The notes under the pieces are model-generated. The model worked only from the letters and a program-made list of their open reading frames with translations, was not told where the DNA came from and made no database searches. From contig JANRJA010000018.1 in the NCBI GenBank assembly GCA_033764315.1, positions 17,496 to 81,495 of the forward strand: 64,000 nt of DNA, in the 5' to 3' direction. Source of the DNA: Oculatellaceae cyanobacterium bins.114. GTDB lineage: Bacteria; Cyanobacteriota; Cyanobacteriia; Elainellales; Elainellaceae. The first letter of the stretch is position 1, and each line of letters begins with the position of its first letter. This document shows positions 27,385 through 60,328 of this stretch, in pieces. Position numbers and translations under genes: made by a program.

Positions 27385-28038
27385 GTGAACCGATGGAAAC
27401 CAGTTATGAACCCTGATTTACTTGATCGCCTCAAAGACCACCCTGATTTGCTCTCAGATGAGACTGATCAGCAATACACAATTACAAACGTGAGCTGGCA
27501 GGCATACGAAGCTCTGTTAGCCGATCTAGAGGATGATTTTCCAGGGTTGCGGGTTCACTATTGTGAGGGAACGCTTGAGATCACCATGCCAGGGCGCAAA
27601 CACGAAGTTTTTAAGGACAACATTGGTGGGTTGCTGAGAGCCTATTTTGAGGAAACCCGGACTCGATTTTATGGATTAGGTTCAACTACGTTTAAGGTAG
27701 AAGCAAAACGTCGGGGGGCTGAACCGGATGTTTCCTTTTGTGTGGGCACTGATAAGGAATTTCCCGATATTGCCATTGAGGTGGTGCAAACCAGTGGCGG
27801 CATCGATAAGTTAGCAGTTTATCTGGGGCTAAATGTTCCAGAAGTCTGGTTTTGGCAACATGGAGCCTTTCGGGTCTATCATCTGCGGGGCGATCGCTAT
27901 GAGTTGGGCGATCGCAGTGAGTTTCTCCCCGATTTGGATTTAACTTTACTGGCAACTTATGTCCAATCGCCAGAGCCCCTGGATGCCGTCTTAGAATTTC
28001 GCGCTGCCATTCGCAATTTGTCTGGAGGAAAGCCATGA
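27385..28038 (+). CDS. Uma2-family PD-(D/E)xK endonuclease-like protein
   Basis: GAEPDVSF, PDIAIEVV, VPEVWFW; stop overlaps the SWIM gene start (ATGA). Confidence 0.9.
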   Translation: MNRWKPVMNPDLLDRLKDHPDLLSDETDQQYTITNVSWQAYEALLADLEDDFPGLRVHYCEGTLEITMPGRKHEVFKDNIGGLLRAYFEETRTRFYGLGSTTFKVEAKRRGAEPDVSFCVGTDKEFPDIAIEVVQTSGGIDKLAVYLGLNVPEVWFWQHGAFRVYHLRGDRYELGDRSEFLPDLDLTLLATYVQSPEPLDAVLEFRAAIRNLSGGKP

Positions 28039-28868: not shown

Positions 28869-28874
28869 GTGGCT

Positions 28875-29528
28875 CTATCTGGATGTCTGAAATTGGGCAC
28901 GTAAGGCTTGCACTGCTTCAATTTCATCTTCTTTAGCGTGCGCCAAGAACTGATACAGCCACTCTTTCGGCACTGGTGGAAAAGTAGGACTGACTTCAAG
29001 TTCGACGTAAACGCCTGCCTGAAGCTGATAAATTCGCCAGACCTGACCATTGAATCGCCAAAACTCAGGCACACCAACGGTGGCGTAAAACCGATTTTTC
29101 CGAATATCGGTATGGGTAATATCCACTTCAACCACTAAATCGGGTGGTGGATCATGAGCAAAATCGACATGGCGACCTTTAACCAAGGGTTGATTTTGAA
29201 TGTAGTAGGCGTTGTCGGGTTCGGCTCCCTTTTGAAAGTTGGGATAATTCATCGTCGTTGAACCTATCGTTTTAACCCGCATTCCCAAGCACTCAATCAG
29301 TGTGACAATGAAGCGTTCAATTAAGCTGCGATAGAATTCATGATCTTCTAAGGGCGTTGTAATTTCTAACATTCCCTCGTCGTAGGTAAGGCGAGAACTA
29401 CGTGCTTGAGGCAGGGCATCTAAAATTTGCAGGTATGCCTCCCAGGACACGCCTCGAATCACCACCCGCTGTTCGCCAATGGGGGCGCGTTGTAGCTCAG
29501 TTGTGGGTTCGGGTGCTGCACTAACCAT
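28875..29528 (-). CDS. Uma2-family endonuclease-like protein
   Basis: GAEPDNAYY, PPDLVVEVDIT, GVPEFWRF. Confidence 0.9.
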   Translation of the reverse strand: MVSAAPEPTTELQRAPIGEQRVVIRGVSWEAYLQILDALPQARSSRLTYDEGMLEITTPLEDHEFYRSLIERFIVTLIECLGMRVKTIGSTTMNYPNFQKGAEPDNAYYIQNQPLVKGRHVDFAHDPPPDLVVEVDITHTDIRKNRFYATVGVPEFWRFNGQVWRIYQLQAGVYVELEVSPTFPPVPKEWLYQFLAHAKEDEIEAVQALRAQFQTSR

Positions 29529-42252: not shown

Positions 42253-42257
42253 CTGTT

Positions 42258-43076
42258 ATGAAATATCGCGCGGCGATCGCCCTTATCCTGCTCAGTTTAA
42301 TGCCCGTCACAGCCCCTGTTTTGGCATATCCGACCTTGGCTCAATCCCTTCTAAAACAAACCCCTCCTCCGCCGCCTGATCGGGGTGCTCCGGGCGATCG
42401 CCTGCGAGGTGGAGCCGTCTGGTACACTCCCCCTGCACCCCCTGACCGAGGTATGCCAGAAGGACGCACGAGAGGCGGAGCCAGTCGGGGCAATTGCCCA
42501 CCCTCTGTTCAATCATTGACAGCCCTTGCCCCCTCTACCCCAGTCAATACCCCGGTCACTCGAAATTCAGTTTGGGGCTTAACCACCGTTGAGCATCCTA
42601 CCTTTTGGTTCTACGTTCCCTATGCAGCCACTCCTGACTTGCCTATGGAGTTTGTTTTGCTAGACGAACAAGACACCCTGATTTATCAGACTGATTTAAC
42701 CGTGACCAGCCCTGCGGGAGTGATTAACATTACCCTGCCCCCTACTGCGCCACCCCTAGAAGTCGGCAAAATGTATCGCTGGTATTTTCTGGTTTACTGT
42801 AGTCCCGAAAATCCCATCTTCACGCAAGGTGGCATTCAGCGCATGACTCCCACCCCAGAATTGGCGACTGCTTTACTGCAAGCTGACCCACGAGAGCAGG
42901 CAGCCCTCTATGCCTCTAATGGCGTCTGGTTTGATGCCCTCACCACAATGGCAAGACTACGACAGGCAGAACCCAACAATCCGGCGATCGCCACTGACTG
43001 GACAAGCCTACTGCAATCAGGGGGCTTAGAGGATGTCGCCCGACAACCTTTTGCCCCCTGTTGCACTCCTCACTAG
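42258..43076 (+). CDS. DUF928-family secreted protein
   Basis: Signal peptide, GGASRG, PTFWFYVPY, GVWFDALT. Confidence 0.85.
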   Translation: MKYRAAIALILLSLMPVTAPVLAYPTLAQSLLKQTPPPPPDRGAPGDRLRGGAVWYTPPAPPDRGMPEGRTRGGASRGNCPPSVQSLTALAPSTPVNTPVTRNSVWGLTTVEHPTFWFYVPYAATPDLPMEFVLLDEQDTLIYQTDLTVTSPAGVINITLPPTAPPLEVGKMYRWYFLVYCSPENPIFTQGGIQRMTPTPELATALLQADPREQAALYASNGVWFDALTTMARLRQAEPNNPAIATDWTSLLQSGGLEDVARQPFAPCCTPH

Positions 43077-43498
43077 GGCAGAGAGCAGGGACTCAACACA
43101 GCTACTAACCCGACATCTCGGCATCAGCATAGCCAGATGCAAGCAGAAGAGCAGCAATTGCCAGTTTGAAAATCGGTTTGTTAGACCTGAGACAGACTTG
43201 CGCAACCCCCGGTATGTTGAGAGAGTGGTAGACCGTGAACCCCACCTAAATCGTGAGCAGGTAAGCAGGGTGCTAGCCGCAAATCATCGGTGCTGCATAG
43301 CGCAAAGTTATCAATTGGCATCCAAGATAAAGTTGCTATGTATCTCCTTAGGAACCAGAAAATAGGCGGAAAGATTCTTGCTATTTAGCTTAAACGACAA
43401 TTATGCGGAAATAATCTATATAAGTAGTAGATTTGGGCGTTAGGCATGAATCATGCTGCCTATCTACCCCAAATTGGGATCTTAGGCAGAAAATTTCA

Positions 43499-43517
43499 GT
43501 CTAATAACTTGTTAGGC
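43499..43517 (+). other. candidate attI site (inverted box GTCTAAT, 5-bp spacer AACTT, core GTTAGGC)
   Basis: Same geometry as the integron attI simple site; GTTAGGCGCAA (43511-43521) is the exact reverse complement of TTGCGCCTAAC (44378-44388) at the first attC. Confidence 0.65.
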
Positions 43518-43644
43518 GCAATCATTGGAGAACTCTTTTAGAAGAGCGCAATTATTAACCCAGCAATCAAAGTCGTAAAGGAAGATTCAGTGCTTTAGGG
43601 GACTCCAAGCTAAAAAATGCTAGAACAACGGGTACCAATTTAAT

Positions 43645-44364
43645 ATGACAAATCCCAGCAAAGAATCTATTGCTGTCCAAATTTCGCCTTCAACTAAGAC
43701 GGTTGGATTCTGGTCTGCGGTACTTGCTACAGCGTTCAGCATCACATACATCGTGGGACAATTTGCCGAATGGTTGGGACTAATGGGGTCTCAAGGAGGT
43801 CCCGCGAGTGGTAGTACGCCTTTTGGGCTGGTGGTATTGCTAACACCGTCACTCTTCCTTGGTTCCTCGTTTCTCGTGCTTGTCGTGAGCATTCACCAAC
43901 TGACGCCTCCCGACAGAAGAATCTGGAGTCATGCTGCCGTTGTATTCGCTACCATTTACGCAGTCCTGATCAGCATTGTCTACTTTGTTCAGCTCACGCT
44001 CGTTGCACCTCGTGTTGCTCACGGGCAGATCGAAGGCATTGAGGCGTTTCTATTTGTGCCCTTCGATTCATTTCTGTATTCCGTGGATATTCTTGGGTAC
44101 AGCTTCATGAGTGTGGCTACCTTGTTTGCTGCACAGGTATTTACGGGTAGCGGGTTATATCGGGTTGTGCGGTTGTTTCTGATCACAAATGGGTTGTTAC
44201 TTCCCTTCATCGCGCTACAAATATATTTCCATTCGTTGATATGGGTTGCAGCACTTTGGGCAGTGACGTTTCCGGGATCAACGTGGACACTTGCTATCCT
44301 CTTTCGACGTACTGCAACTACAGGAACTATTCCTAACAGTTCGGTGGATGAGACTCAGGAGTAG
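43645..44364 (+). CDS. hypothetical multi-TM membrane protein (cassette 1)
   Basis: 239 aa hydrophobic ORF between the attI-like site and attC1. Confidence 0.75.
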   Translation: MTNPSKESIAVQISPSTKTVGFWSAVLATAFSITYIVGQFAEWLGLMGSQGGPASGSTPFGLVVLLTPSLFLGSSFLVLVVSIHQLTPPDRRIWSHAAVVFATIYAVLISIVYFVQLTLVAPRVAHGQIEGIEAFLFVPFDSFLYSVDILGYSFMSVATLFAAQVFTGSGLYRVVRLFLITNGLLLPFIALQIYFHSLIWVAALWAVTFPGSTWTLAILFRRTATTGTIPNSSVDETQE

Positions 44365-44381
44365 CAAAATAGTCGCCTTGC

Positions 44382-44468
44382 GCCTAACAACCGCGCTGCA
44401 CCGGAACGTTTCAGTATGGTCGGTTTGTTGCGAAGGTTGTTTGCGTCCGGTGAGCGCGACCGTTATGC
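44382..44468 (+). other. attC site 1
   Basis: GCCTAAC-AAC-CGCGCTGCACCGGAACG...CGTCCGGTGAGCGCG-ACC-GTTATGC; imperfect palindrome with extrahelical bases; 87 bp. Confidence 0.88.
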
Positions 44469-44618
44469 TGCCTCAAGTTATCTGTGGGAGCGCAAGCTGA
44501 AATCTCTCTGTGAGACACAGTGCCCAAGTAGCGATGAGTTTTTTGCTGAGACGCAATTGGGAGGTGATCGGTAAGCTACAATTCCTAATAGATTATTCTT
44601 TTCATCGCAGGTTGGGTA

Positions 44619-44909
44619 GTGCGAAAACAGGAAGTCCTGACATTACTGGTAAAGCACCAAAACACGCTGAAGGATTTTGGCGTAAAGTCTCTGATGCTGT
44701 TCGGCTCAGTGGCAAGAGATGAAGCGCGAACAGACAGCGATGTTGATCTGCTAGTAGAGTTTGATCGTCCGGTCGGGCTGTTTGCCTTTGTACGCTTGAA
44801 ACGATACCTGGAAGAGATTTTAGAGAGTTCAGTTGATCTGGGTACGCCCGACTCCCTCAAACCTTATTTACGAGAACCCATTTTTCGGGAGGCGATTCGT
44901 GCCTTCTAG
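44619..44909 (+). CDS. minimal nucleotidyltransferase antitoxin (MntA-like)
   Basis: FGSVARDEARTDSDVDLLVEF (GS-x10-DxD). Confidence 0.88.
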   Translation: MRKQEVLTLLVKHQNTLKDFGVKSLMLFGSVARDEARTDSDVDLLVEFDRPVGLFAFVRLKRYLEEILESSVDLGTPDSLKPYLREPIFREAIRAF

Positions 44910-45237
44910 AGATTGGCAAAATCGAGTAAGGGATGTACTAGCCGCGATCGCAGAAATCCGAGAGTTCACCAACGAAATAACCTTTGAGGAATTTCAGAGC
45001 GATCGCAAAACAATCAGAGCAGTTTTGTATAACTTTGCAATCATTGGTGAAGCAGTTCGTGGCATTCCGCCTGATGTAGAAGCGTTACATCCTGAAATTC
45101 CCTGGGACGATGTACGTGGAATGCGAAATATTGTGATTCACGAGTATTTTCAGGTGAATCTATCGATCATCTGGCAAACGATTCAAGAAGACATTGTTTT
45201 ATTAGAGATCTCGCTTCGTCAACTAATAAACCCTTAA
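44899..45237 (+). CDS. HEPN (DUF86) ribonuclease toxin (HepT-like)
   Basis: IIGEA and RNIVIHEY (Rx4HxY); GTG start overlaps the MNT gene. Confidence 0.88.
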   Translation: MPSRDWQNRVRDVLAAIAEIREFTNEITFEEFQSDRKTIRAVLYNFAIIGEAVRGIPPDVEALHPEIPWDDVRGMRNIVIHEYFQVNLSIIWQTIQEDIVLLEISLRQLINP

Positions 45238-45278
45238 GCCCGATTGATTACGCTGTTAACTTTAGTAGATGAGCTTAG

Positions 45279-45740
45279 ATGCAACAGTCAGAGGATGCGA
45301 ATACACCGAAACCATTGAGCCGAGTACAACGCTGGGAAATAGTACGAACTTTGCTACAACGTGAAAACTTGAGAATTGAGGCAAGAGAGGCATTTCGTCA
45401 GGCTTATCCCAATGCCCCAGAGGAGATGCTAACAACGGCTGTTTTTCATACTTGCGTTGATGGAATTGGAGCCGCAATAGATTGGCTAGTTGATTTAGAA
45501 CTATTTTTACGTGAACCGAGTCGAGAACTTGATATGGGTACCACATATTACCTGTTGTACCATCTTTACAATTGGTATCAGTTTCATGTATTGCTTCCAG
45601 ATGGAAGGACAGGCGTGTTAGAACGTCTTAAAGAAATTAGGGAGTTGATTGCAGATGGAGAGATAGAGGCAATTCTTGCAACAGTTGAGGAGTTAGAAGC
45701 GATGTTTGAAGGTGGTCGAAATAATCCTGATTTTCAGTAA
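45279..45740 (+). CDS. hypothetical protein (third gene of cassette 2)
   Basis: 153 aa ORF ending 6 bp before the ACATAAC box. Confidence 0.7.
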   Translation: MQQSEDANTPKPLSRVQRWEIVRTLLQRENLRIEAREAFRQAYPNAPEEMLTTAVFHTCVDGIGAAIDWLVDLELFLREPSRELDMGTTYYLLYHLYNWYQFHVLLPDGRTGVLERLKEIRELIADGEIEAILATVEELEAMFEGGRNNPDFQ

Positions 45741-45989
45741 GCAGCAACATAACATAGCCTCTGAGCCGGACGAGGTCAAGTAGATCTTGAAGAATTCTGT
45801 TCATTCTCATTGCTCATTACATACACAGACATGTTCATTTAACTGACTCTAAATATGGATTTACAGCATCTATTTTGGAGTCAGTTATTTTGTCTATTCG
45901 TGTTATATTTTTTGGTGCTTTAGCGTCTTTTTACTTTGAATGGGAGTTAGGTTGCTGTGCTCATTCTCTTGCTTTAAGGATTGGCAATG

Positions 45990-47231
45990 TCATAGAGCTA
46001 ATGGCTTAGCAATAGGAGATCCCTTGCGTTTTAAGGATGCAAGATATTTGGCTTCATCGTAGGCTTCCCGGTTCTTCCAACACCGAAACAAAATGCGAAT
46101 CCACTTGAACGCCAGTGACCGCATCGCCGCGGGATGGGATTTGCCCTTAGACCGTTGCATCTGGTAATAAGCTTGTGCCCAGCCACAATGATGACGGCTG
46201 TGATTGGCCCACTCCACAAAGGTCTGTCTCAAGAAGATCGGACAACTCCAACGCCAATGCACCCAGTTCTTTTTGCCGCTACTCTCTTTAACCGGCGCAA
46301 TACCGAAGTAGCACATCATCTGCTGGGCATTCTCAAAACGTGTCCTATCTTCTCCAAAAGCTGCCAGTAATCGCGGAGCCAGATGCTCTCCAGCCCCAGG
46401 TAGAGCCGCAAACCACGCCGCATCCGAAAAGCTGGTAAAGCACTGGTCAATTTTGAGCGTCAGTTCCACTAAGCTTGCCAACAGGGGCTTTAACTGACCG
46501 ATCAAGGTTTGCACTAACCATTGCATCGGCTCAACAATGCCTGGGTCTTCCGTTAAAGGAATACCGGACGCTGCAATCCGCTCAATCCGACGGGCGATTG
46601 CACTGCGACGAATGACACGATGCTGCTGAAAGAATTGGGTAAGTTCTTCTGAACTTGCCGCTTGAGCAGCTTTGAGAGTGGGATAGCGTTCAAGAAACTC
46701 ACAAAACACCTGGGTGTCCTTGTCCTCAAACCAATCAAGCACTTGAGGGTAATAGTTTTTGAGGGCCGAGGTAAGACGATTGGTCAACCGCACCTTCTCG
46801 CCCACTAGCATTCTCCTGGACTCAACCCACGGTCGCAGTGCTCGCATCTGAGCGCTTTCTGGACGCCAAACGGGTAATTTGTCTCCATGCTTTCGCAACA
46901 GTTCGACCAAAATCCGAGCATCAATCGGGTCTGACTTGGCACGAGATGGCTGAAAGGCTTTGCGGTAATTGGAAACAGTGCGGGGATTGATGGGAAAAAG
47001 CACCAGGTTTTCGTACTGGCAAAGCGCATAAACCAGTGGGCCACGTTTTTGCTCCAAGCATACGGCGAGCAAGGCAGTGCCATAGCGTTTTCGTAGTCCC
47101 TCGACCCAAGCAGCAATGGCATCAGGTTGTGATCCAATGACCAACTCTTCGGCTTCCCCTGTGGCGCAATCGTAAAGATAAATGTCATGTTTGCGGTCAG
47201 CCCAATCAATACCGATGTAAGCAGCGTACAC
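45990..47231 (-). CDS. IS110-family transposase (DEDD recombinase)
   Basis: YIGIDWADRKH, VCLEQ and KSDPIDA (DEDD); PGAGEHLA; GIAPVKESSGK. Confidence 0.95.
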   Translation of the reverse strand: MYAAYIGIDWADRKHDIYLYDCATGEAEELVIGSQPDAIAAWVEGLRKRYGTALLAVCLEQKRGPLVYALCQYENLVLFPINPRTVSNYRKAFQPSRAKSDPIDARILVELLRKHGDKLPVWRPESAQMRALRPWVESRRMLVGEKVRLTNRLTSALKNYYPQVLDWFEDKDTQVFCEFLERYPTLKAAQAASSEELTQFFQQHRVIRRSAIARRIERIAASGIPLTEDPGIVEPMQWLVQTLIGQLKPLLASLVELTLKIDQCFTSFSDAAWFAALPGAGEHLAPRLLAAFGEDRTRFENAQQMMCYFGIAPVKESSGKKNWVHWRWSCPIFLRQTFVEWANHSRHHCGWAQAYYQMQRSKGKSHPAAMRSLAFKWIRILFRCWKNREAYDEAKYLASLKRKGSPIAKPLAL

Positions 47232-47276
47232 GTCCTAATTCATAATGTTATTCTCGAATTACAGTTGGTGATGCAA

Positions 47277-47468
47277 CTGGGACGGCTTCTGCTCAAGGCG
47301 ATAAAGATTATGGAAGGTGTTGCCGCACCGACCTCTGAGGATTCGTTGGAGAGAGAAGCACAGGGTGGGGCGAGGCGATATGTTAGTAGACATCGAATGT
47401 CATCAAGTGCATGGTCGTCTCCTACCCTGCGTCCCAGTGATGAAGCTGAGTTTATATCCTCTGCTTCA
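47277..47468 (-). ncRNA. candidate IS110 bridge RNA
   Basis: Predicted 5' hairpin (47441-47468) and two stem-loops closed by the 47277-47284/47430-47437 stem; the internal loops match the attC target and the element ends. Confidence 0.65.
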
Positions 47469-47484
47469 GTCCTGTCCTCCCATA

Positions 47485-47565
47485 AATTCAAATGCAGCGG
47501 ACGGTTGACAGCCGCTGGTACTGAGTTTTAGGCTAACTGCCGCCGCTGCATTTGAGTCGTTATGC
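47485..47565 (+). other. attC site 2 (right part; R'' box at 45747-45753 separated by the IS)
   Basis: TCAAATGCAGCGG...CCGCTGCATTTGA-GTC-GTTATGC. Confidence 0.8.
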
Positions 47566-47669
47566 ATATATTCAACCTTAAAAGAGTCAAGCTGGGAGCG
47601 ATCGCCCAGGTTGATTTGGTCAGCTTAACTCCCTACCGTTATGCATATGTTCAACATTAGAAGAGTCAA
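47558..47669 (+). repeat. 33-bp direct repeat of a cassette 5' leader (47558-47590 and 47637-47669)
   Basis: CGTTATGCATATATTCAACCTTAAAAGAGTCAA vs CGTTATGCATATGTTCAACATTAGAAGAGTCAA; 3 mismatches. Confidence 0.85.
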
Positions 47670-47674
47670 AGGTT

Positions 47675-48319
47675 ATGACAGAACAAGTTAATACTCAAAT
47701 TCCTATTTCTCCCCACTTCTTTTGTGATGGTATGGGATACGTATTGACCTCATCGAGTCTGGGTGGAAGTAATCTGACTCCTGATCAAATTTCTAGCATT
47801 GTTTTGGATGGTTCTGCTGACGATATGACTCCCCTTTTGACTCAGGGGATCTGTATGCCTGTTCTCTTTGATGGCGATTGTGCTTTAGATCGCAGTACAC
47901 TTTTCGTCCTTGGCGACTTAACGCCAGAGCAAGAGCGGGATTGGAGAGCGCGGTTAACCTGGAAATTACGAATTCCTTGTGGAAAATTAATCTTGTTATG
48001 CAGTTGTATAGCAGAAGATCTTGCTCATGCCATTTCTGGAAAACCCCCAACAAAACACTTTGAAATTTTTCAGGTAGTAGATATTCCTCCTGATTCGTAC
48101 TTGGTTGAGATCTATGCTTATTCATCCAGCTTGACGGTCATCATGACACTGGATGACGAAGAATATGAAGAGTTTGAGAAAACTATGCCCGAAAAAGATT
48201 ATGACAAGGAAGGAAACTTAACTTTAGTGAATTACATCATTCGTCTATCATCTCTCAAAAGTGAACCCAACATGCCCCAACATAGTGGTTCCTGGTTTGA
48301 TACTTTTACTTTCCGCTAA
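47675..48319 (+). CDS. hypothetical protein (cassette gene)
   Basis: 214 aa, AT-rich, same orientation as the array. Confidence 0.7.
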   Translation: MTEQVNTQIPISPHFFCDGMGYVLTSSSLGGSNLTPDQISSIVLDGSADDMTPLLTQGICMPVLFDGDCALDRSTLFVLGDLTPEQERDWRARLTWKLRIPCGKLILLCSCIAEDLAHAISGKPPTKHFEIFQVVDIPPDSYLVEIYAYSSSLTVIMTLDDEEYEEFEKTMPEKDYDKEGNLTLVNYIIRLSSLKSEPNMPQHSGSWFDTFTFR

Positions 48320-48328
48320 ACATAATTT

Positions 48329-48904
48329 ATGCAAGTTATTGAGCACACCGAAGTAAAGTTAGTCCTTACACTTGATGAGAATCAGATATTACATAATGCA
48401 ATCTTGATGGCAAGCGTATTTATATTTGCTGGAATGTTGATGTTTGGTGCAGATTTTAGATCAAATCCTAACTATGAACTCATTTCCGCACAAAATCTAA
48501 ATTTTGTCATTAAAATAATGGGAGGTATTTCAATACTAATTGGTTTGTTTTCCGTCTGGGCTGGAATAAATAATCGAGACAATACCTATATCTTTGATAA
48601 AGAGAACTCTATATTTAGAGTTACAGGAAAGAATTTGTTAGGTTCCTATACAAAAGACTATTCTATCTCTGCTATTAAGGACGTAACGCTACATGTTACA
48701 TCTACTCAGCCCATAGACCTTCCTGACAACAATTTTTATGGATCTTTAGTTCCTACACCTGATAAGTTCAATATTTCTCTTGAGCTAGAAGGTGAAGCAT
48801 TTTCAGAAAAAGTTTTTTTACATTACCAAGACTCGAATTTTCAATTAATGAGTAGTCTTGTAAATACAATTAGAGATTTTCTTGAGATGACGGATGACAA
48901 ATGA
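48329..48904 (+). CDS. hypothetical two-TM membrane protein (cassette gene)
   Basis: 191 aa, very AT-rich, two hydrophobic segments. Confidence 0.7.
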   Translation: MQVIEHTEVKLVLTLDENQILHNAILMASVFIFAGMLMFGADFRSNPNYELISAQNLNFVIKIMGGISILIGLFSVWAGINNRDNTYIFDKENSIFRVTGKNLLGSYTKDYSISAIKDVTLHVTSTQPIDLPDNNFYGSLVPTPDKFNISLELEGEAFSEKVFLHYQDSNFQLMSSLVNTIRDFLEMTDDK

Positions 48905-48977
48905 CAGCAAACGAACGCATTGTAGGCTATCTACATCATCTGAGATTGGCAACGGTATGTCAGTTCGATCGTTATGT
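48899..48977 (+). other. degenerate attC site 3
   Basis: Ends GTTCG-ATC-GTTATGT with partial left arm CGAAC; R'' box decayed. Confidence 0.5.
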
Positions 48978-49056
48978 TTACCACGCTGCTATTTTTGTAC
49001 AAGTGAATCTACAAAATGAAATGTGATGCTGTGTGCCAGTTGGGGAATCCATATCA

Positions 49057-49587
49057 ATGCAAACAAGGGAAATAATAAAACCAGGTAGGATCGCTGCTCT
49101 ACTGCTCTTCTTAATATTTGGAGGTTTCTGGTCACCTATACTCTTTCAATCCATTCCTCGTATATTTTATCCTGACACTTTGACTATAAGTTGCCATAAG
49201 GTGTCTGCAATTACTAATTGTGAAATAGTTCGGCAGTACGGTTCTGGGGAAAGATTGGTTAAATCATACTTAAATGTAATAGGAGTAGAGCCACCATCAA
49301 GTCAGCCTCAAGGAAAGACACTTGTTCCAGTATTTTTAGTAACCAGAAGTGGCAATGAGCTTCTGTTTCCTCTGGAAGACCCTGTAGTTAGTATGTATAA
49401 AAAAACTGAAATAAAGTATGAGATTGGGCAGTTTCTAAATAACAGTGAAACCCTATTAATAATCACCTTAAATAACCGTGCCGATGCAGCTTTTACATTT
49501 GTGTTTCTAGGGATCTTGCTTTTCCCTTGTTGCTTTTATGTAGTGAGAGACTTATGCAATTTATTAAAGGAATTCAAAGTTTTGTAG
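49057..49587 (+). CDS. hypothetical membrane protein (cassette gene)
   Basis: N- and C-terminal TM segments; AT-rich; start at 49033 or 49057. Confidence 0.65.
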   Translation: MQTREIIKPGRIAALLLFLIFGGFWSPILFQSIPRIFYPDTLTISCHKVSAITNCEIVRQYGSGERLVKSYLNVIGVEPPSSQPQGKTLVPVFLVTRSGNELLFPLEDPVVSMYKKTEIKYEIGQFLNNSETLLIITLNNRADAAFTFVFLGILLFPCCFYVVRDLCNLLKEFKVL

Positions 49588-49613
49588 ATTTATAAGAAAA
49601 CCCTGAGCTTGAT

Positions 49614-49702
49614 GTATAACAAGTTGCTGCACCGGAACGGAGCCATAATTTATCTGTCGAGTTCCAAAAGCTACTGCCGTCCGGTGAGCTTGGTCGTTAG
49701 CC
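49614..49702 (+). other. attC site 4
   Basis: GTATAAC-AAGTT-GCTGCACCGGAACGG...CCGTCCGGTGAGC-TTGGTC-GTTAGCC; arms nearly identical to attC1. Confidence 0.88.
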
Positions 49703-49867
49703 CTTAAGTCCCTGGTAGTGATGTAGCTTGGATTTTGGGGGAACCGATGGGATTGGCAGTGTGGGGCGACAGCTCTAAGCGGATCGATTTGCAGGCAACG
49801 GCACTCAGCACAATGCGTTTGATGGCACAACAGAAGCTAAAGGAGAAAGCGATCGCCCGCTCACCCT

Positions 49868-50416
49868 TTACTCCGGGTGCAGCAAAGCCTCTGGCAATTG
49901 ATGCAGAATGCGCTCAAAGATGGCTGTGTTGTTGAGTCCACGGGTCAATACCAGTCCGCCTTGAATCAGCGCGATCGCCTCTTCAGCCCTTTGACGGGCA
50001 GTCATCGGTGTGATGCCAGCCTCTACTAACACGTCCGCCACACTATCAATCCAGAGGTTGAGTGCTTGTTGCACGCGCTCCTGAAATAATTCATGGGCCT
50101 CTCCGACGCTGAGGAGTGCTAATAAACAATCCTGCTGACCCTGTTGGTAAAAGGCATCGACATTTTGGTTCATCGCCTGGAGGCGATCGCGGGGTGAGCG
50201 ATCGCTGCGTAAGGGTGCTAACAAATTTTCCTTTAACGCCTGGGTCACGTACTCCAGAACAGCATCAGCCATTTCTTCCTTGCCATTCGGGAAATAGTGA
50301 TAGAGACTGGCTCGCTTCAGCCCAGTTGCCTCAGAAAATCGGGTGATGCTAGCCCCTTCGTAGCCATATTCCTGAAATACCGCCATCAACTGGGGGATGA
50401 CTTCTGCTCTAGCCAT
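49868..50416 (-). CDS. TetR/AcrR-family transcriptional regulator
   Basis: GYEGASITRFSEATGLKRASLYHYFPNGKEE HTH; likely ATG at 50416. Confidence 0.92.
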   Translation of the reverse strand: MARAEVIPQLMAVFQEYGYEGASITRFSEATGLKRASLYHYFPNGKEEMADAVLEYVTQALKENLLAPLRSDRSPRDRLQAMNQNVDAFYQQGQQDCLLALLSVGEAHELFQERVQQALNLWIDSVADVLVEAGITPMTARQRAEEAIALIQGGLVLTRGLNNTAIFERILHQLPEALLHPE

Positions 50417-50448
50417 GAGTGCCCTCAAAAAAGGTTTTGCGTTCCTAC

Positions 50449-50500
50449 TTGACAGCATACCAAACGTTCGGTAGTTTAAGAATATACCGAACGTTTGGTA
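50449..50500 (+). promoter_or_regulatory. sigma70-type promoter with two TetR-like palindromic operators
   Basis: TTGACA (50449)-17 bp-TAGTTT (50472); operators TACCAAACGTTCGGTA (50458-50473) and its exact reverse complement TACCGAACGTTTGGTA (50485-50500). Confidence 0.75.
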
Positions 50501-50685
50501 AAGAAGGCGGGGCGATATAACCTACAAGGAGCAAATTGATGAAACCTCCATTTAAAGAGCGCTTGGCGGTGATTGCAGGAGCAGCAGACTGTATCACGGG
50601 TCAGCCTTCTTGAACCAGAACTGCCCGCCACTGAATGGCAAATTCTATGCAAAACACACGTGTACAAAACACAAGGAGTAATATC

Positions 50686-51543
50686 ATGACGACCTACAAC
50701 ACTATTTCGATCGATGGCTTGAATATTTTCTATCGGGAGGCCGGTTCAAAGGACAATCCGACCATTGTTCTCCTGCATGGCTATCCAGCATCGTCTCACA
50801 TGTATCGAGATTTGATTAACCAGCTATCCGATCAGTTTCACTTGATTGCACCCGATTATCCTGGGTTTGGCAACAGCGATACACCACCAATCGATCAATT
50901 TGAATACAGCTTTGATCATCTCGCTGATATTACCGAGCATTTCTTGCAAGCTCTGGAATTAAATCGCTTCAGTCTGTATGTGCAAGATTACGGCGCGCCC
51001 GTTGGGTTTCGGATTGCCAGCCGCCATCCCAAATGGATTCAATCGCTGATTGTGCAGAATGGGAATGCCTATGAGGAAGGGTTGACTCCGGCTTGGCAAG
51101 CTTTCCGTAATTTGTGGAGCGATCGCAGCGAAGCGACCGAAGCACCTGTACGCGATTTTCTCAAGCGCGATACGACGATTTTCTTTTACACAGCCGGGGT
51201 GCGCGATCGCCAAAACATCAATCCCGACAATTGGAATCTTGACCAATCCTTCCTGGATCGCCCAGAGAACGCGGCGGCTCAATTGGAACTGTTCTACAAC
51301 TACCGGGCGAACCTGGAGCAGTATCCCCAGTGGCATGAGTACTTCCGCACCCACCAGCCGCCGACGCTCATTGTCTGGGGTAAGAACGACCCGTTCTTTG
51401 GTCTAGAGGGAGCCAATGCATTCCAACGAGATCTGAAAACGATTGAGGTGCATCTGCTCGATACGGGGCATTTTGTCCTGGATGAAGAAGGTGAGGCGAT
51501 CGCCGCCCACATCCGTCGCTTTCTTCCGGCTCACTTGGGTTAG
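50686..51543 (+). CDS. alpha/beta hydrolase (epoxide hydrolase/dehalogenase-like)
   Basis: LLHGYP, PDYPGFG, QDYG nucleophile motif, TGHF; AAGGAG RBS. Confidence 0.9.
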   Translation: MTTYNTISIDGLNIFYREAGSKDNPTIVLLHGYPASSHMYRDLINQLSDQFHLIAPDYPGFGNSDTPPIDQFEYSFDHLADITEHFLQALELNRFSLYVQDYGAPVGFRIASRHPKWIQSLIVQNGNAYEEGLTPAWQAFRNLWSDRSEATEAPVRDFLKRDTTIFFYTAGVRDRQNINPDNWNLDQSFLDRPENAAAQLELFYNYRANLEQYPQWHEYFRTHQPPTLIVWGKNDPFFGLEGANAFQRDLKTIEVHLLDTGHFVLDEEGEAIAAHIRRFLPAHLG

Positions 51544-51646
51544 TCGATCAACCCTTAGCAACTGGCTGGATCGATCTAATGGCTACAACGCTGGTTGCCA
51601 AGGTTACAGTTTCGGCGATCGATTCAACTCCTCAGAGGACACAACC

Positions 51647-51937
51647 ATGTCAGTTTATTTTGTCGTTTCGCTCAACATTACCGATGCTGATCGATTTATG
51701 CAGTATTTTCAGGCAGTCCTGCCGCTGATCAAACAACGCGGCGGGCGATTAATTGCTCAGGGAACGCCCGAAACGATCGAAGGCAACACGACAGGCTCGC
51801 AATCGGCTGTGTTTGAGTGGTCTTCCCGTCAAGCCTTTCTCGACTACTGGCACTCAAAAGAGTACGCCGAGATCAGAAAACTGCGTGAAGGTGCCGTAGA
51901 GTTTCAGGGAATCATTGTCGAAGGAGTGGTCGGATGA
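51647..51937 (+). CDS. DUF1330-family protein
   Basis: GGRLIA, IEG, EW.S, YWHSKEYAEIRKLR; GAGGA RBS. Confidence 0.8.
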   Translation: MSVYFVVSLNITDADRFMQYFQAVLPLIKQRGGRLIAQGTPETIEGNTTGSQSAVFEWSSRQAFLDYWHSKEYAEIRKLREGAVEFQGIIVEGVVG

Positions 51938-52575
51938 AACTCATCTCCGTTTGTGTTGGCTTGCCACGCGAAGTCAACTGGAAGGGCAAACCTGTCACAA
52001 CTGGTATTTTTAAGCAGCCTGTACAGGGGCGAGTGATGATGCGATCGCTAAATCTAGAGGGCGATCAACAAGCGGATCTAACCGTTCACGGGGGTGTCGA
52101 GAAAGCCATTTACGCTTATCCGATGGAGCATTACACTTACTGGCGGCAGGAACTACCGGATGAAGCACTCCCCTGGGGTGCATTTGGTGAAAATCTGACC
52201 GTAGAAGGCTTATTGGAAACAACTGTGAACATTGGCGATCGCTTTCGCATCGGCAATGCCGAAGTGATGGTAACGCAGCCCCGGTTTCCTTGCTTCAAAC
52301 TCAATCTCAAGTTTGGCCGCGACGATATGGTCAAACGGTTCCTGAACAGTCGTTTGAGCGGCATTTATTTCTCAGTGTCGCAAGAAGGTGAAATTGGAGC
52401 AGGTGATGCGATCGAACTCATAGAGCGCGACGAACACAATATTACAGTTGCTGACATTGTGCGAATCTACGTGCGTGAAGCGAATGATGATTTGGTCCGT
52501 CGTGCCATTCAAGTACCCGCTTTGGCAGCCGAGTTGAAGACTTACTTTCAGCAGCAAATTGAACAACGCCATTAA
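51934..52575 (+). CDS. MOSC-domain protein (YiiM-like)
   Basis: VHGGVEKAIY, FGENLT, TQPRFPCFKL. Confidence 0.9.
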   Translation: MKLISVCVGLPREVNWKGKPVTTGIFKQPVQGRVMMRSLNLEGDQQADLTVHGGVEKAIYAYPMEHYTYWRQELPDEALPWGAFGENLTVEGLLETTVNIGDRFRIGNAEVMVTQPRFPCFKLNLKFGRDDMVKRFLNSRLSGIYFSVSQEGEIGAGDAIELIERDEHNITVADIVRIYVREANDDLVRRAIQVPALAAELKTYFQQQIEQRH

Positions 52576-52669
52576 GCTAGACTTTTGGCATGAGGATTGA
52601 GGCTCTAATGGATCACGATGACCGCGATAGCACGATCCAATGTAGACTAGCCAATCGACGTTCTAAACG

Positions 52670-52756
52670 GTCTAACAACCGTGTTGCGGCGGAACAACCA
52701 ATTTTCTTCGTTGGGCTGCAAAGGTTGCCTACGTCCGCTGAACACGACTGTTATGC
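52670..52756 (+). other. attC site 5
   Basis: GTCTAAC-AAC-CGTGTTGCGGCGGAAC...GTCCGCTGAACACG-ACT-GTTATGC. Confidence 0.85.
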
Positions 52757-52802
52757 ATCTAACCCAGCACCTTTCTGCGCCACTTCAATTAATAGGTAGA
52801 AG

Positions 52803-53285
52803 ATGTCATCCTCCGAGCCAATTAGCATTCGTCAGCTTTCCGCCAACGACCTAACACTTATGGAGGGTTTATTGGCTACCTTCGGTGAGGCTTTCAACGA
52901 AGTTGATACCTATAGCTCGTCTCGCCCAAGCAATGCCTATCTCAAACAGTTGCTAAACAGCGATTATTTCATTGCGCTTGCAGCGTTAAAAAATGGATCA
53001 GTAATTGGAGGTATCGCCGCTTACGAACTCCAGAAGTTTGAGCAGGAGCGTAGTGAAATTTATATTTACGATTTGGCTGTTGCAGCAGCGCATCGACGTG
53101 AAGGAATTGCCACCGCCTTAATCCGAGAATTAAAGAAGATCGCTGTAGCGCGAGCAGCTTATGTTATTTTCGTGCAGGCGGACATTGGGGATGACCCTGC
53201 GATTGCACTCTATACGAAGCTTGGGACACGCGAAGATGTGCTTCACTTCGATATTCCTGTTCCGGTTGGTGATGAAGATGCATAA
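52803..53285 (+). CDS. aac(3)-I: AAC(3)-I family aminoglycoside 3-N-acetyltransferase
   Basis: FIALAA, FEQERSEIYIYDLAV...HRREGIATALI and VIFVQADIGDDPAIALYTKLG..EDVLHFDI closely match the AAC(3)-Ia sequence as I recall it; the stop codon lies in the attC R'' box. Confidence 0.88.
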   Translation: MSSSEPISIRQLSANDLTLMEGLLATFGEAFNEVDTYSSSRPSNAYLKQLLNSDYFIALAALKNGSVIGGIAAYELQKFEQERSEIYIYDLAVAAAHRREGIATALIRELKKIAVARAAYVIFVQADIGDDPAIALYTKLGTREDVLHFDIPVPVGDEDA

Positions 53286-53365
53286 CAACCGCGATGCACC
53301 AAAACTTTGGATTATAGTAGCTAGTATCCTGAGTTATCTAAGTCCGGCGATCGCGACCGTTATGC
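53280..53365 (+). other. attC site 6
   Basis: GCATAAC-AAC-CGCGATGCACC...CCGGCGATCGCG-ACC-GTTATGC; AGATGCATAAC is the reverse complement of the cassette start GTTATGCATCT. Confidence 0.85.
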
Positions 53366-53402
53366 ATCTAAATCCATAGTCTAAAAATTAGATCTTTGAT
53401 TC

Positions 53403-54188
53403 ATGCGTGTTTTATATCCTGAAAATCCATTAAATAAAACACAAGCAGATGAGCCGTATCACGAAGAGTTCACTTTCGTGTGCAGTGCTGGGTGTAATCA
53501 ATGTTCACTTTTTGATTTTGATGCATTGGAATTTAATGAATTCAATCCACATCCAAAAATCCAGACTGGTGAGCGAGTACTTTATCGTGGCTGGATGCTC
53601 AACTCGCAAAAATATAAAACCTTAATCACGCAAATCGAACACAAAGGTGGTGTACCAATAACTTCCCATGATGACTACCTTCGATGTCATCATCTACCAG
53701 GTTGGTATCAACAATGCTCAAATTTCACAGCAGAGACATATTTTTTTGCAGTTGACGAAGAGTTAGAAGCAAAAGTAGAAGAACTTGGATGGGATCGCTA
53801 TTTTGTAAAGGACTTTGTGAAGTCCAACACAGCTAAACTAGGTTCAGTTGCAAATTCACCATTCGAAGTCCGCAGTATTATTGAGCAGATTGCTACTTAT
53901 CGAGGTGAAATTGAGGGTGGCATTGCAATACGACGTTGTGAAAACTATCGCTCCAGTACAGAACGTCGATACTTTATAGTTAATGGTACACCTTACTCAT
54001 CTGATGGCGCAGTTCCTGAGATGGTACAAGCAATAGCCAGCATCATTAATGCACCGTTTTACTCTGTCGATGTGGTAGAAAACTCAGAAGGGAAACTGCG
54101 GCTTGTTGAGTTGGGAGATGGGCAGGTGTCAGATAAAAAGGATTGGTCAGTATCCAAATTGGTGGAGGTTATTGCAGCAAATGCATAA
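53403..54188 (+). CDS. ATP-grasp domain protein (DUF4343-like)
   Basis: LYRGWML, FVKDFVKS, FYSVDV, VELGDGQVSD; stop lies in the R'' box. Confidence 0.75.
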   Translation: MRVLYPENPLNKTQADEPYHEEFTFVCSAGCNQCSLFDFDALEFNEFNPHPKIQTGERVLYRGWMLNSQKYKTLITQIEHKGGVPITSHDDYLRCHHLPGWYQQCSNFTAETYFFAVDEELEAKVEELGWDRYFVKDFVKSNTAKLGSVANSPFEVRSIIEQIATYRGEIEGGIAIRRCENYRSSTERRYFIVNGTPYSSDGAVPEMVQAIASIINAPFYSVDVVENSEGKLRLVELGDGQVSDKKDWSVSKLVEVIAANA

Positions 54189-54271
54189 CAATCCGCTTGC
54201 ACACCGACCGTATTAAGTTAGTTTGTTGAGAACAAAAGGTTACTGGCAACCTCTGACCGCGACCATTAGAC
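54183..54271 (+). other. terminal degenerate attC site 7
   Basis: GCATAAC-AAT-CCGCTTGCAC...TGACCGCG-ACC-ATTAGAC (G of the GTT core changed to A). Confidence 0.65.
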
Positions 54272-54331: not shown

Positions 54332-56140
54332 TTACCCAACTGTGGTCTGCATTGACGGATTGACGATCATATTGCCCTGTTTTAGGTAATTCAGCACTCG
54401 CTGGCGACCCTCTAACGCCGTTTCAAAGTCGTGTTTGAGTTGCACCGCCTTATCATAGGCGGCGAGGGCTGCCTCATAGCGTTCCAAAATCTCCAACACG
54501 CGACCCCGATCGTGCCATGCCCAATAATTCTCAGGCTGAATCTGCACGACTTTAGTATAAGAACTCAGGGCGTCTTTATATTGGTGCAACTGCTCCAACA
54601 CACTACCTCGCTTAAACCAGGCCAGGTGATCGTCGGGCTGGAGCTGCACGACCTGATCATAAGAAGCCGCCGCTTCCTCATAGTGTTGCAGGTTCTCCAA
54701 CGCCATCCCTCGCATCAACCACGCCAGTGCATCTTCTGGATTTTCTTGAATAGCGCGATCGCACGACATGACCGCTTCGTCATAGTGTTGCAAGCTATAG
54801 AGCTGATCGACCTGTTGAAGTTGACTCAAAACCCGCTTGCGACTTTGAATCGCCAACTGAAATCCAGACTTCAGTTGCACCGCTCGATTATAGGCCGCGA
54901 CCGCTTCCTCTAACCGCTCTGAGGCTTCTAACACGCGACCGCGATCGTGCCATGCCCAATAGTTATCGGGTTGAATCTCAATCACTCGGTCATAACAGGC
55001 GATCGCTTCCTCATACCGATGTACGTTTTCCAGTGCCTTGCCCCGCTTAAACCAGGCCAGATAATCATCTGACTGAATCTGAATGACGCGATCATAGGAC
55101 GCGATCGCCTCATCATATTCCTGTAAGTTTTCTAACGCGATCCCCCGTTTAAACCAGATCAAATAGTCGTCTGGCATCGCCTGGATCACTTTGTCGTAAC
55201 ACGCCACGGCTTCTCGATAACGTTGCAGTTGAAACAACTCATCGCCTCGCTCAAACCATGCCAGGTGCCCATCTAAGCTGACAGCCCGAACCGTTGGCAT
55301 GATCACGGTGCTGTGATTGGGCCCTAACACTGTAGCGATCGCTTTTAATGCCTCTAAAGCCGATTGATAGCGTTGACGGAAGTCATAACGCACCATGCCA
55401 TCCAACAGATCAGCAAACTCTGGGCTGACCTCTGTATGTTCGCGCCAGTGAATCTCACCAGTCCGGGGGTCTTCTGGCAATTGCGCTGGATATAACCCCG
55501 TCAAGGCCCGAATGCCCACCATGCCAACCGCATAGATATCGCTGCTAAATCGGGGTTTGCCTGCCATCTGCTCGTTGGGCATATATCCCGATGAGCCGAT
55601 CGCGATCGTGATGCTGGTTTGAGTTTGGTCATCAGTCGCCACCCCAATCTGCTTAACAGCTCCAAAGTCAATCAAGACAATCTTTTGATCGCTTTTCCGC
55701 CGAATCAAATTAGAGGGTTTGATGTCCCGGTGAATCACCTGCTGCTGGTGCACAAACTCCAGCGTGGTCAAAATATCATGCAAGATTAGCAAGACTTGCT
55801 CTTCATTAAACCGTTTTCCTCGTTTAAACAAACGGCTTAATACATCGCCTTCAACAAATTCTTGAACCAGATAAAACTCTTGATTTTCCTCAAAGTGAGC
55901 AAACAAACGAGGAATTTGATCGTGACTGCCTAGGGTGTAAAGCACTTCGGCTTCGCGATCAAACAAACGTCGGGCGGCTTGCAATGAACCTGCTTCAGTT
56001 ACTTTTGGCTTGAGCTGTTTGACAACACACTGAGGCTTTCCAGGCAAATGCCAATCCTCAGCCAGATAGGTTTGCCCAAATCCGCCTCCCCCTAGATATC
56101 GAATAATCTGGTAACGTCCGCCGATTATTTTTCCCAGCAT
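54332..56140 (-). CDS. Ser/Thr protein kinase with TPR repeats
   Basis: LGGGGFG, HRDIKPSN, DFG; C-terminal AWxxRG...YEEAxxxYD TPR array. Confidence 0.94.
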   Translation of the reverse strand: MLGKIIGGRYQIIRYLGGGGFGQTYLAEDWHLPGKPQCVVKQLKPKVTEAGSLQAARRLFDREAEVLYTLGSHDQIPRLFAHFEENQEFYLVQEFVEGDVLSRLFKRGKRFNEEQVLLILHDILTTLEFVHQQQVIHRDIKPSNLIRRKSDQKIVLIDFGAVKQIGVATDDQTQTSITIAIGSSGYMPNEQMAGKPRFSSDIYAVGMVGIRALTGLYPAQLPEDPRTGEIHWREHTEVSPEFADLLDGMVRYDFRQRYQSALEALKAIATVLGPNHSTVIMPTVRAVSLDGHLAWFERGDELFQLQRYREAVACYDKVIQAMPDDYLIWFKRGIALENLQEYDEAIASYDRVIQIQSDDYLAWFKRGKALENVHRYEEAIACYDRVIEIQPDNYWAWHDRGRVLEASERLEEAVAAYNRAVQLKSGFQLAIQSRKRVLSQLQQVDQLYSLQHYDEAVMSCDRAIQENPEDALAWLMRGMALENLQHYEEAAASYDQVVQLQPDDHLAWFKRGSVLEQLHQYKDALSSYTKVVQIQPENYWAWHDRGRVLEILERYEAALAAYDKAVQLKHDFETALEGRQRVLNYLKQGNMIVNPSMQTTVG

Positions 56141-59889: not shown

Positions 59890-60099
59890 CTACATATCCT
59901 CTTCATCCTCGGCAATAGCTTCCATAACCTGTTTGACTATTTTTGGATGCAGTGTCTTTCCAGCATGAAAAGGAACCACAACTCTAATGTTCTCTTTGAA
60001 ATAGATTCTATGGCTTCCCTTGCTTCTCAACAAGATGAAACCATCAGCTAACAACAATTTCTCTGCATCTTGAGCAGTAAGGCGAGGGAGCTTAGGCAA
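59890..60099 (-). CDS. hicA: HicA-family toxin
   Basis: GFILLRSKGSHRIY...VVVPFH. Confidence 0.88.
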   Translation of the reverse strand: MPKLPRLTAQDAEKLLLADGFILLRSKGSHRIYFKENIRVVVPFHAGKTLHPKIVKQVMEAIAEDEEDM

Positions 60100-60316
60100 C
60101 TTGAACCTCTAGAGTCATCGTTACAATCTCTCTCGCTAAAGTTTCTTGCTTCTCTTCATCCGAAAGTGTTTCTAAATATAGCTCAACCGCTTCTTGAATA
60201 TTTTCCTTGACCTCTTCTAAAGAATCTCCTTGTGTTTGGCAGCCTTTCAATTTGGGTGAGTAGGCATAATAGCCATACTCATCTTTCTCAATTACAATTC
60301 CAACTTGATAAACCAT
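60092..60316 (-). CDS. hicB: HicB-family antitoxin
   Basis: YYAYSPKLKGCQTQGDSLEEVKENIQEAVELYLE. Confidence 0.88.
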   Translation of the reverse strand: MVYQVGIVIEKDEYGYYAYSPKLKGCQTQGDSLEEVKENIQEAVELYLETLSDEEKQETLAREIVTMTLEVQVA

Positions 60317-60328
60317 ATCAGTACCTCT

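Follow-up and report, generated by a model that had tools for sequence, protein, structure and literature searches.

An array of gene cassettes that stands in a cyanobacterial chromosome without a neighboring integrase gene raises the question of whether it is an integron that has lost its integrase, a set of cassettes that never had one at that place, or a family of repeats that merely resembles integron recombination sites. To address this question, we analyzed a stretch of 64,000 nucleotides (nt) from Oculatellaceae cyanobacterium bins.114 (assembly GCA_033764315.1, contig JANRJA010000018.1, positions 17,496 to 81,495; hereafter the window), in which an original prediction, made from the letters alone, had placed an integron-type cassette array at 43499..54271. 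Our analysis suggests, with a probability of roughly 85%, that this locus is a chromosomal integron cassette platform that no longer has its integrase gene (intI). The element is composed of an attI site (43350-43511) and, beyond it, seven cassettes in a single orientation (43512-54271), most of them closed by an attC of a family widespread in cyanobacteria, and since intI is gone it corresponds to a cluster of attC sites lacking integron-integrase (CALIN) in the terms of IntegronFinder. The proposed right end at 54271 was retained, and the left edge was moved from 43499 to the start of the attI block at about 43350 (43311 in one comparison).

To identify attC sites by a means that did not depend on the window, we scanned genome contigs with a pattern of this attC family, which returned at least 119 stretches, and we took the flanking DNA of 80 loci (labelled L001 onward), none of them from the source genome. 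Among the 80 titled loci listed, 66 are cyanobacterial and the other 14 correspond to planctomycete, Chloroflexota, other or unnamed records, including two with a doubtful Rhizobium title. A first model (R1), prepared from the window's own sites, gave 161 matches in these loci, of which the best 150 were aligned (alignment A5). The five matches of R1 within the window were rejected as evidence, since the model had been trained on those very sites; because of this circularity, a covariance model (R2) was built in its place from A5 alone, that is, from 150 attC-like sites of other genomes and none from the window.

A search of all 64,000 bases with R2 and with filters off identified six attC sites, all in the minus (bottom-strand) orientation and all within 44382-54271: attC 1 (44382-44468; 92.2 bits, E = 3.8e-19), the right part of attC 2 (47480-47565; 36.2 bits, E = 3.6e-6), attC 4 (49614-49702; 70.3 bits), attC 5 (52670-52756; 74.1 bits), attC 6 (53280-53365; 60.6 bits), and the terminal attC 7 (54183-54271; 32.6 bits, E = 2.5e-5). 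The next-best place in the whole window had an E-value of 2.7, and R2 identified no site of the family in the remaining 53 kilobases (kb). A covariance-model search was the check on which the original prediction had been made to depend, and six of its roughly seven palindromes were recovered in this way; the one proposed near 48899 did not reach significance (best placement 48906-48977, 8.3 bits, E = 0.05 with only 301 bases searched) and is at most a decayed attC (attC 3). The five intact sites measured 87, 89, 87, 86, and 89 nt, within the 86-89 base pairs (bp) that had been announced, and all six lie directly 3' of open reading frames (ORFs) in the same orientation. In addition, a strict pattern of the family had three matches in the window against 0.00 expected (100 shuffles), and the motif TAACAA-n5/6-TGC proved to be a genuine signature of this attC family, as had been suspected from the window's sites. 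A scan of the window with Rfam gave no match, which is uninformative because Rfam appears to hold no attC family.

The core boxes of attC sites follow the consensus RYYYAAC for R'' and GTTRRRY for the inverted R'. The R'' boxes of the window (GCCTAAC, ACATAAC, GTATAAC, GTCTAAC, GCATAAC, and GCATAAC) are of this R'' type, and two of them contain the stop codon of the preceding ORF, as proposed earlier (TAA 53283-53285 in the GCATAAC at 53280-53286, and TAA 54186-54188 in the GCATAAC at 54183-54189). The R' boxes are GTTATGC in four sites, GTTAGCC in one, and ATTAGAC in attC 7; GTTATGC, with a T in place of the second R, departs from the R' consensus, and so does ATTAGAC as a whole. In the bottom-strand consensus fold (RNAalifold), 21 pairs make up the stem and two bases bulge out of its 3' arm; 8 of the pairs show compensatory changes. 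Bottom-strand folding energies were 2.7-3.5 standard deviations below those of shuffled sequences for the three strongest sites, and near the shuffle level for the other two intact ones. In A5, 89.3% of the cells were paired (78.1% in shuffles), 273 cells carried double changes (71 in shuffles), and the covariation score was 0.278 (0.101 in shuffles), with none of 500 shuffles reaching either of the latter two values; compensatory changes were present in 10 of the 12 pairs of the inner helix, and slid controls of the alignment paired at 29-46%. It should be noted that A5 was fitted to its model, and these pairing and covariation figures are therefore biased towards the structure. The family is also conserved in sequence, loop included.

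To the left of the first cassette we identified a plus-strand block (43350..43511) in which a box of about 14 nt (TAGGCGGAAAGATT type) occurs three times in direct and once in inverted orientation, and for which the crossover is predicted at G43511|T43512. The block closes with an inverted pair that precedes G|TTAGGC, resembling attI1 of the class 1 integron of Escherichia coli (L121). It is 82% identical, over 164-168 nt, to a block of plasmid pB of Kovacikia minuta CCNUW1 (L122) that lies between an annotated integrase gene and the first cassette, with no homology beyond the predicted crossover. In pB, the annotated integron integrase gene (5986-6948, minus strand) starts 52 nt from the attI block (7001-7164), and the cassettes beyond attI carry five attC sites of the same family (43-84 bits); by alignment, the start codon of this gene corresponds to about position 43298 of the window. 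Since the block of the window is homologous to the stretch from the integrase to the first cassette of pB and this homology ends at the crossover, we assign it, by position and homology, as a putative attI. Among the components of a complete integron, the locus has a predicted attI and lacks intI, which agrees with the attI-bearing CALIN that had been proposed.

This type of attI recurs in other genomes. By BLAST, 43350-43517 is 74-82% identical to stretches in four loci (L040, L068, L071, and L006; 73-82% for 43350-43511), with the homology ending at 43507-43517, and in a multiple alignment the conserved block stops at the GTTA of the first crossover while the flanks on both sides are unrelated; altogether, the attI homology ends at the crossover in five other genomes. 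The genes next to it differ, namely a DUF928 gene in the window, a purL-like gene in L040, an aldehyde dehydrogenase gene in L071, and a rubrerythrin gene in L006. In Kovacikia, BLAST identified one copy of the block on pB and one within a 12-kb stretch of pA, the other matching places on pB being attC matches and those on pA lying outside that stretch. The pA copy is accompanied by two attC sites and has no IntI match within 6 kb on either side, and thus a single closed genome holds a complete integron plus a separate integrase-less attI-array. A limited literature search returned no description of a conserved cyanobacterial attI, nor of an attI kept in integrase-less arrays.

The cassettes themselves provide a second line of evidence. 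It had been proposed that they were integrated as circles, and three of the seven (the MNT/HepT, AAC(3)-I, and ATP-grasp cassettes) recur elsewhere at 86-94% identity with a homology that begins no more than 1 nt from the predicted crossover and ends there in two (at the crossover for aac(3)-I and inside attC 7 for ATP-grasp; for MNT/HepT the right end lies at 45238, past the HepT stop codon and short of the attC). The MNT/HepT stretch (44462-45238) has an 86% identical counterpart in L030, in which an attI-like site directly precedes the cassette. The aac(3)-I cassette is 91% identical to plasmid1 of Aulosira laxa NIES-50 (52751-53362) and 88% identical to L073 (52762-53362), where it follows a different site, and the ATP-grasp cassette (53359-54229) is 93.6% identical to plasmid pCRI9333.02 of Crinalium epipsammum PCC 9333. 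Counting the window, aac(3)-I is thus present in three contexts, and MNT/HepT and ATP-grasp in two each. In the loci and plasmids that were searched, no counterpart of cassettes 3 and 4 was identified; for cassette 1 there was a 67% match of its ORF alone, and cassette 5 was represented by just a part of its gene module. The mutual complementarity of the cassette ends that had been reported for cassettes 1, 2, 6, and 7 (11/11, 9/10, 11/11, and 9/9) was reproduced: counted from the crossover G, unbroken runs are 11 in cassettes 1 and 6 and 9 in cassette 7, and cassette 2 has a run of 6 with 9 of its first 10 positions complementary. Over positions 5-14, cognate ends average 5.14 of 10 complementary positions against 3.67 for 42 non-cognate pairs, a contrast that is modest because four cassettes start alike.

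We then analyzed the window for an integrase. No tyrosine recombinase had been noticed in it, and our searches agree: none of the 62 ORFs scanned with Pfam (18 of them also with NCBIfam) matched Phage_integrase or TIGR02249, and tblastn of five cyanobacterial IntI proteins against the window gave a best E-value of 0.06, at unrelated places, so that intI is absent over the 43 kb upstream and the 9.7 kb downstream of the array that the window covers. Next to the attI, the Kovacikia IntI had no match in 42000-43400 at E-values up to 5, and a local DNA alignment of 43077-43349 with the 5' region of intI gave a score of 18, the mean of shuffles being 17.9; 43077-43310 has no recognizable intI remnant. 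A resemblance to the region of the intI start codon in a MAFFT alignment (window about 43290-43310) was discarded as too short to count.

In other genomes, the same attC family is associated with integron integrases. Using IntI1 from the E. coli class 1 integron (L121) as a phmmer query against all ORFs of the loci, we obtained matches in 12 loci. Five of them encode a full or nearly full integron integrase, divergent from an array of this attC family, with TIGR02249 scores above the cut-off of 265 bits (L067, 464; L010, 473; L037, 438; L008, 438; L022, 335), and the other phmmer-positive loci encode integrase fragments only, as judged with NCBIfam. An integrase gene divergent from a cassette array is the canonical layout of an integron. 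With seven IntI proteins as tblastn queries, an IntI-like match of any kind was present in 18 of the 80 flanked loci (L007 and L020 being overlapping stretches of a single contig), and 13 of these 18 are partial, mostly short N-terminal fragments beside attI. As examples, L071 retains residues 1-20 of intI (10519-10578) and L068 residues 63-119 (17877-18047), and short fragments are also present in L011, L041, L069, L074, L080, L032, L044, and L007. Taking only the loci with 10 kb on both sides, 7 of 23 have an IntI match and a single one is intact (L067), which indicates that integrase-less arrays are the common case for this attC family, in agreement with the abundance of CALINs described by Cury et al. 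(2016; PMC4889954).

Based on the established mechanism of integrons, the array may have been built by an integron integrase inserting cassettes singly, as circles, each time recombining attI at G|TT with the bottom strand of the incoming attC in its folded form; because of such a recombination, the first bases of a cassette would be complementary to its own R''. Since cassette exchange has left homologies that start at G|TT, we predict from the sequence that IntI acted on the bottom strand of the window's attC sites. In the closest complete relative the integrase gene begins roughly 50 nt to the left of the attI block; here it would later have been deleted in place, or the attI-array would have been separated from it. 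Excision or reshuffling would then need an IntI from elsewhere, and for such service in trans Kovacikia minuta offers a precedent, with a complete integron on pB and an attI-array without IntI on pA. Four attC sites look intact; with attC 2 split by an insertion sequence (IS), a decayed attC 3, and a weak attC 7, only partial mobility would be expected at best. Loss of intI may also have removed the usual cassette promoter, in which case expression would depend on read-through or on promoters of the cassettes, as may be the case for a toxin-antitoxin pair and a TetR-controlled operon described below.

Several observations weigh against this reading. The missing trace of intI makes deletion in place only a possibility, and a promoter scan of 43000-43700 gave no plus-strand site and one minus-strand site, equal to chance expectation, with a consensus that may not fit cyanobacterial promoters. 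The two bulged bases of the attC fold are C and T here, compared with G and T in the class 1 aadA1 site (L121), the C occupying, on the bottom strand, the position nearer the R box where the class 1 site has G. The attC models are also specific to the family, as R1 gave no match on the class 1 integron at E-values up to 0.01. Cassettes 3, 4, and 5 have weak end complementarity (runs of 3, 5, and 5), and cassette 5 is a 3-kb module of four genes, one of them on the opposite strand, which is unusual for a cassette and could reflect a later insertion or fusion.

The absence of any intI remnant in 42000-43400 is also what would be expected if the array never had an integrase at this place and attI plus cassettes arrived as a unit by rearrangement, homologous recombination, or transfer, for example from a plasmid integron. 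The left edge of the attI homology, at about 43311 in the comparison with Kovacikia pA and about 43350 in those with four other loci, falls near the equivalent of the intI start (about 43298), the different neighborhoods of this attI type in the window, L040, L071, and L006 point in the same direction, and rearrangement is named among the origins of CALINs in the relevant part of Cury et al. (2016; PMC4889954). Against such an arrival, the intI fragments of varied length beside attI in other loci (the 13 partial cases of 18) are those expected of stepwise decay in place, and a repeat search of the window identified no transposon ends or repeats bracketing the array; we therefore regard this origin as possible, though somewhat unlikely. 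Cassettes might alternatively have been inserted by an integrase in trans at an ordinary secondary (GTT-type) site, with no true attI being present. That CALINs can arise when IntI inserts cassettes at secondary sites is accepted according to the passages on this subject in two papers (PMC4889954; PMC8618304), and yet a secondary site would have no block such as the one to the left of the first crossover, of 160 nt, with four copies of the box and 73-82% identity to the attI of pB and to four further arrays, which makes this origin very improbable. The least probable explanation, to which we give hardly any credence, is that the palindromes belong to a cyanobacterial repeat family, such as repetitive extragenic palindromic (REP) or miniature inverted-repeat transposable element (MITE)-like elements or terminators, unrelated to integrons. 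Cyanobacterial genomes are indeed rich in short repeats, the HIP1 octamer being present 101 times in the 64-kb window, and conservation of the sites in sequence, including the loop, would be at home in a repeat family; in contrast, the six sites share one orientation and position directly after ORFs and are missing from the other 53 kb, their family is linked to integron integrases in the canonical layout, and cassette-sized units are exchanged with homologies that start at G|TT.

An extension of the preferred reading, an integron platform that no longer has its integrase gene, can be put forward tentatively, although we consider it rather doubtful: cyanobacterial integrons might usually be distributed, with several attI-headed and mostly intI-less arrays per genome served in trans by a single, sometimes plasmid-borne, IntI. 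If this were true, the fact that at least six genomes conserve the 160-nt attI after losing the adjacent gene would reflect continued use and not recent decay, and cassettes, AAC(3)-I-type genes among them, would pass between conjugative plasmids and chromosomal arrays such as that of the window.

With regard to the content of the array, cassette 1 (43512..44462, plus strand) consists of an ORF encoding 239 amino acids (43645-44364), without a match in Pfam, NCBIfam, or PADLOC, and attC 1. Cassette 2 (44463..47559, plus strand) encodes an MNT-type nucleotidyltransferase (44619-44909) and a HepT-type RNase (44833-45237), which match the Pfam families NTP_transf_2 and HepT-like and form a predicted toxin-antitoxin pair, followed by an ORF without family (45279-45740) and the split attC 2; PADLOC matched the MNT protein alone, to candidate defense models. 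Cassette 3 (47560..48971, plus strand) carries two ORFs without family (47675-48319 and 48329-48904) and the decayed attC-like site at 48906-48977. At its start there is a 79-nt tandem duplication (47558-47590 / 47637-47669), with copies that are 91% identical and that repeat the R' box plus the first 26 nt, which may be a collapsed mini-cassette. A HIP1-centered hairpin and an R''-like GCTTAAC were also observed between the two copies. Cassette 4 (48972..49696, plus strand) consists of an ORF for which no family was found (49033-49587) and attC 4. The guanine-plus-cytosine (GC) content of the cassettes ranges from 0.35 (at 48-49 kb) to 0.52, compared with about 0.49 for the window.

Cassette 5 (49697..52750, plus strand) encodes a TetR regulator on the minus strand (49868-50458), an alpha/beta hydrolase (50635-51543), a DUF1330 protein within an ORF at 51443-51937, and a MOSC/YiiM protein identified with Pfam (51934-52575), followed by attC 5. 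The part with TetR, hydrolase, and DUF1330 is 77% identical to a stretch on a plasmid of Synechococcus PCC 7502. Between the divergent tetR and hydrolase genes there is a perfect 16-nt inverted repeat (50458-50473 / 50485-50500), which is likely the TetR operator.

Cassette 6 (52751..53359, plus strand) consists of an acetyltransferase gene (52803-53285) and attC 6. Its product matches NF033083 over its full length with 237.7 bits, above the curated cut-off of 200, and is a predicted member of the AAC(3)-I family; it shares 58-63% identity with AAC(3)-Ia and -Ib, whereas its identity with the Aulosira protein is 95%. The aac(3)-I-type cassette of Aulosira laxa is preceded by an attI-like stretch (L001, 14850-15000) that resembles the attI region beside the intact integrase of L037; its plasmid1 is typed as conjugative, and no integrase was found on it within 15 kb. 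It should also be noted that two loci with titles of Rhizobium metagenome-assembled genomes (L064 and L073) combine the cyanobacterial attC family, an aac(3)-I-type cassette, and HIP1 sites, and their binning looks doubtful. Finally, cassette 7 (53360..54271, plus strand) carries an ATP-grasp gene of the R2K clade (53403-54188; Pfam R2K_3) and the terminal attC 7.

The split site that had been noted at 45747/47485 is explained by a 1732-bp IS element on the minus strand (45754..47485, with ends ambiguous by 3-4 nt), which separates the R'' box of attC 2 (ACATAAC, 45747-45753) from the rest of the site (47486-47566). Its transposase gene (45990-47231) matches NF033542 with 164.5 bits (cut-off 140) and the Pfam domains DEDD_Tnp_IS110 and Transposase_20, and on these profiles the element is a predicted member of the IS110 family. 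The non-coding stretches measure 254 nt upstream and 236 nt downstream of the gene, lengths from which the IS110 and IS1111 types are not distinguishable. A 68%-related IS in L020 (11277-13092) has similar ends and lies at the identical position and in the identical orientation in another attC, and thus both copies examined (2/2) share this target. In a comparison for possible guide-target pairing, the upstream non-coding end of the L020 element has a 10-nt exact match to the target flank, and only 5-6 nt match at the aligned place in the copy of the window.

The element lies in a cyanobacterial chromosome, since housekeeping genes identified with Pfam (pheS, hisG, ribF-type, surE, and clpB-type genes) occupy most of the 64 kb. 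It is flanked on the left by the DUF928 gene (42126..43076, plus strand; Pfam DUF928) and on the right by a gene for a Ser/Thr protein kinase with TPR repeats (54332..56140, minus strand; Pfam Pkinase and TPR), both outside the element. A neighborhood shared with Kovacikia minuta pB through DUF928 was considered and rejected, because the two DUF928 proteins are only 27% identical. Elsewhere in the window, 60001-62000 has a low GC content (0.35-0.37, against about 0.49 elsewhere) and includes an ORF of 578 amino acids with a NACHT domain (60329-62065, minus strand), which may indicate a second acquired island. In addition, an unassigned ORF stands between two genes of the Uma2 family of putative restriction endonucleases (27385-29528), and an SNF2/DUF3670 helicase gene (23984-27349) adjoins this gene pair.

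The locus represents a well-resolved cyanobacterial example of a class of elements usually known by attC counts only, with attI, crossovers, cassette limits, and an attC-targeting IS all mapped to base level. Individual cassettes move between cyanobacterial chromosomes and plasmids, and the presence of an AAC(3)-I family cassette on a plasmid typed as conjugative bears on the environmental reservoirs of resistance-type cassettes; at 58-63% identity, this cassette is not the source of the clinical genes. A recognizable attI also provides a handle on how often integrase-less arrays stay serviceable.

Compared with known systems, the cassette in the window that encodes the AAC(3)-I family enzyme is similar to the aacC1 (aac(3)-Ia) cassette of the class 1 integron on E. 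coli plasmid p1658/97 (L121) in carrying an NF033083 enzyme with an attC of its own, and differs from it in the protein identity of 58-63% and in an attC of another family. The IS in attC 2 recalls the IS1111-attC group (ISKpn4 and ISPst6), which targets one end of attC sites as outlined in part of a paper on these elements (PMC11187229), since the window and L020 copies have DEDD transposases and share one insertion point and one orientation at the R'' end of attC; unlike in that group, the transposase is assigned to IS110 by NCBIfam and the hosts are cyanobacteria. The closest complete relative, Kovacikia minuta pB (NZ_CP083584.1), shares the attI type, the attC family, and the one-strand layout of attI and then cassettes, whereas pB is a plasmid with an integrase and the window is chromosomal and without one, and no cassette of pB matches the first 6.4 kb of the array. 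Integrons are listed for Cyanobacteria in the taxonomic part of 'The Natural History of Integrons' (Ghaly et al.; PMC8618304), and a Cyanobacteria-specific attC covariance model has been presented (Ghaly et al., 2021; PMC8352920). As in the account of that model, the family described here is conserved in sequence and structure within Cyanobacteria, and it is probably the same family. With CALINs, cyanobacterial integrons, and a cyanobacterial attC model already published, in the sections concerned of these papers (PMC4889954; PMC8352920), the element is of a known kind. According to the parts of Cury et al. (2016; PMC4889954) that define them, CALINs are abundant, integrons occur in Cyanobacteria, and a CALIN comprises two or more attC sites, spaced by 4 kb or less, and no nearby intI; the window has six attC sites with a largest gap of about 3.0 kb. 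Its cassettes are also similar to those described for CALINs there, most being without known function, with one resistance-type gene and an IS present. In the same parts of that study, attI sites were not searched for outside classes 1-3 and are described as unknown for most integrons. Unlike in a CALIN as defined there, the attI of the window is still recognizable, and the modest novelty of this locus beyond its known kind is that its attI survives and recurs.

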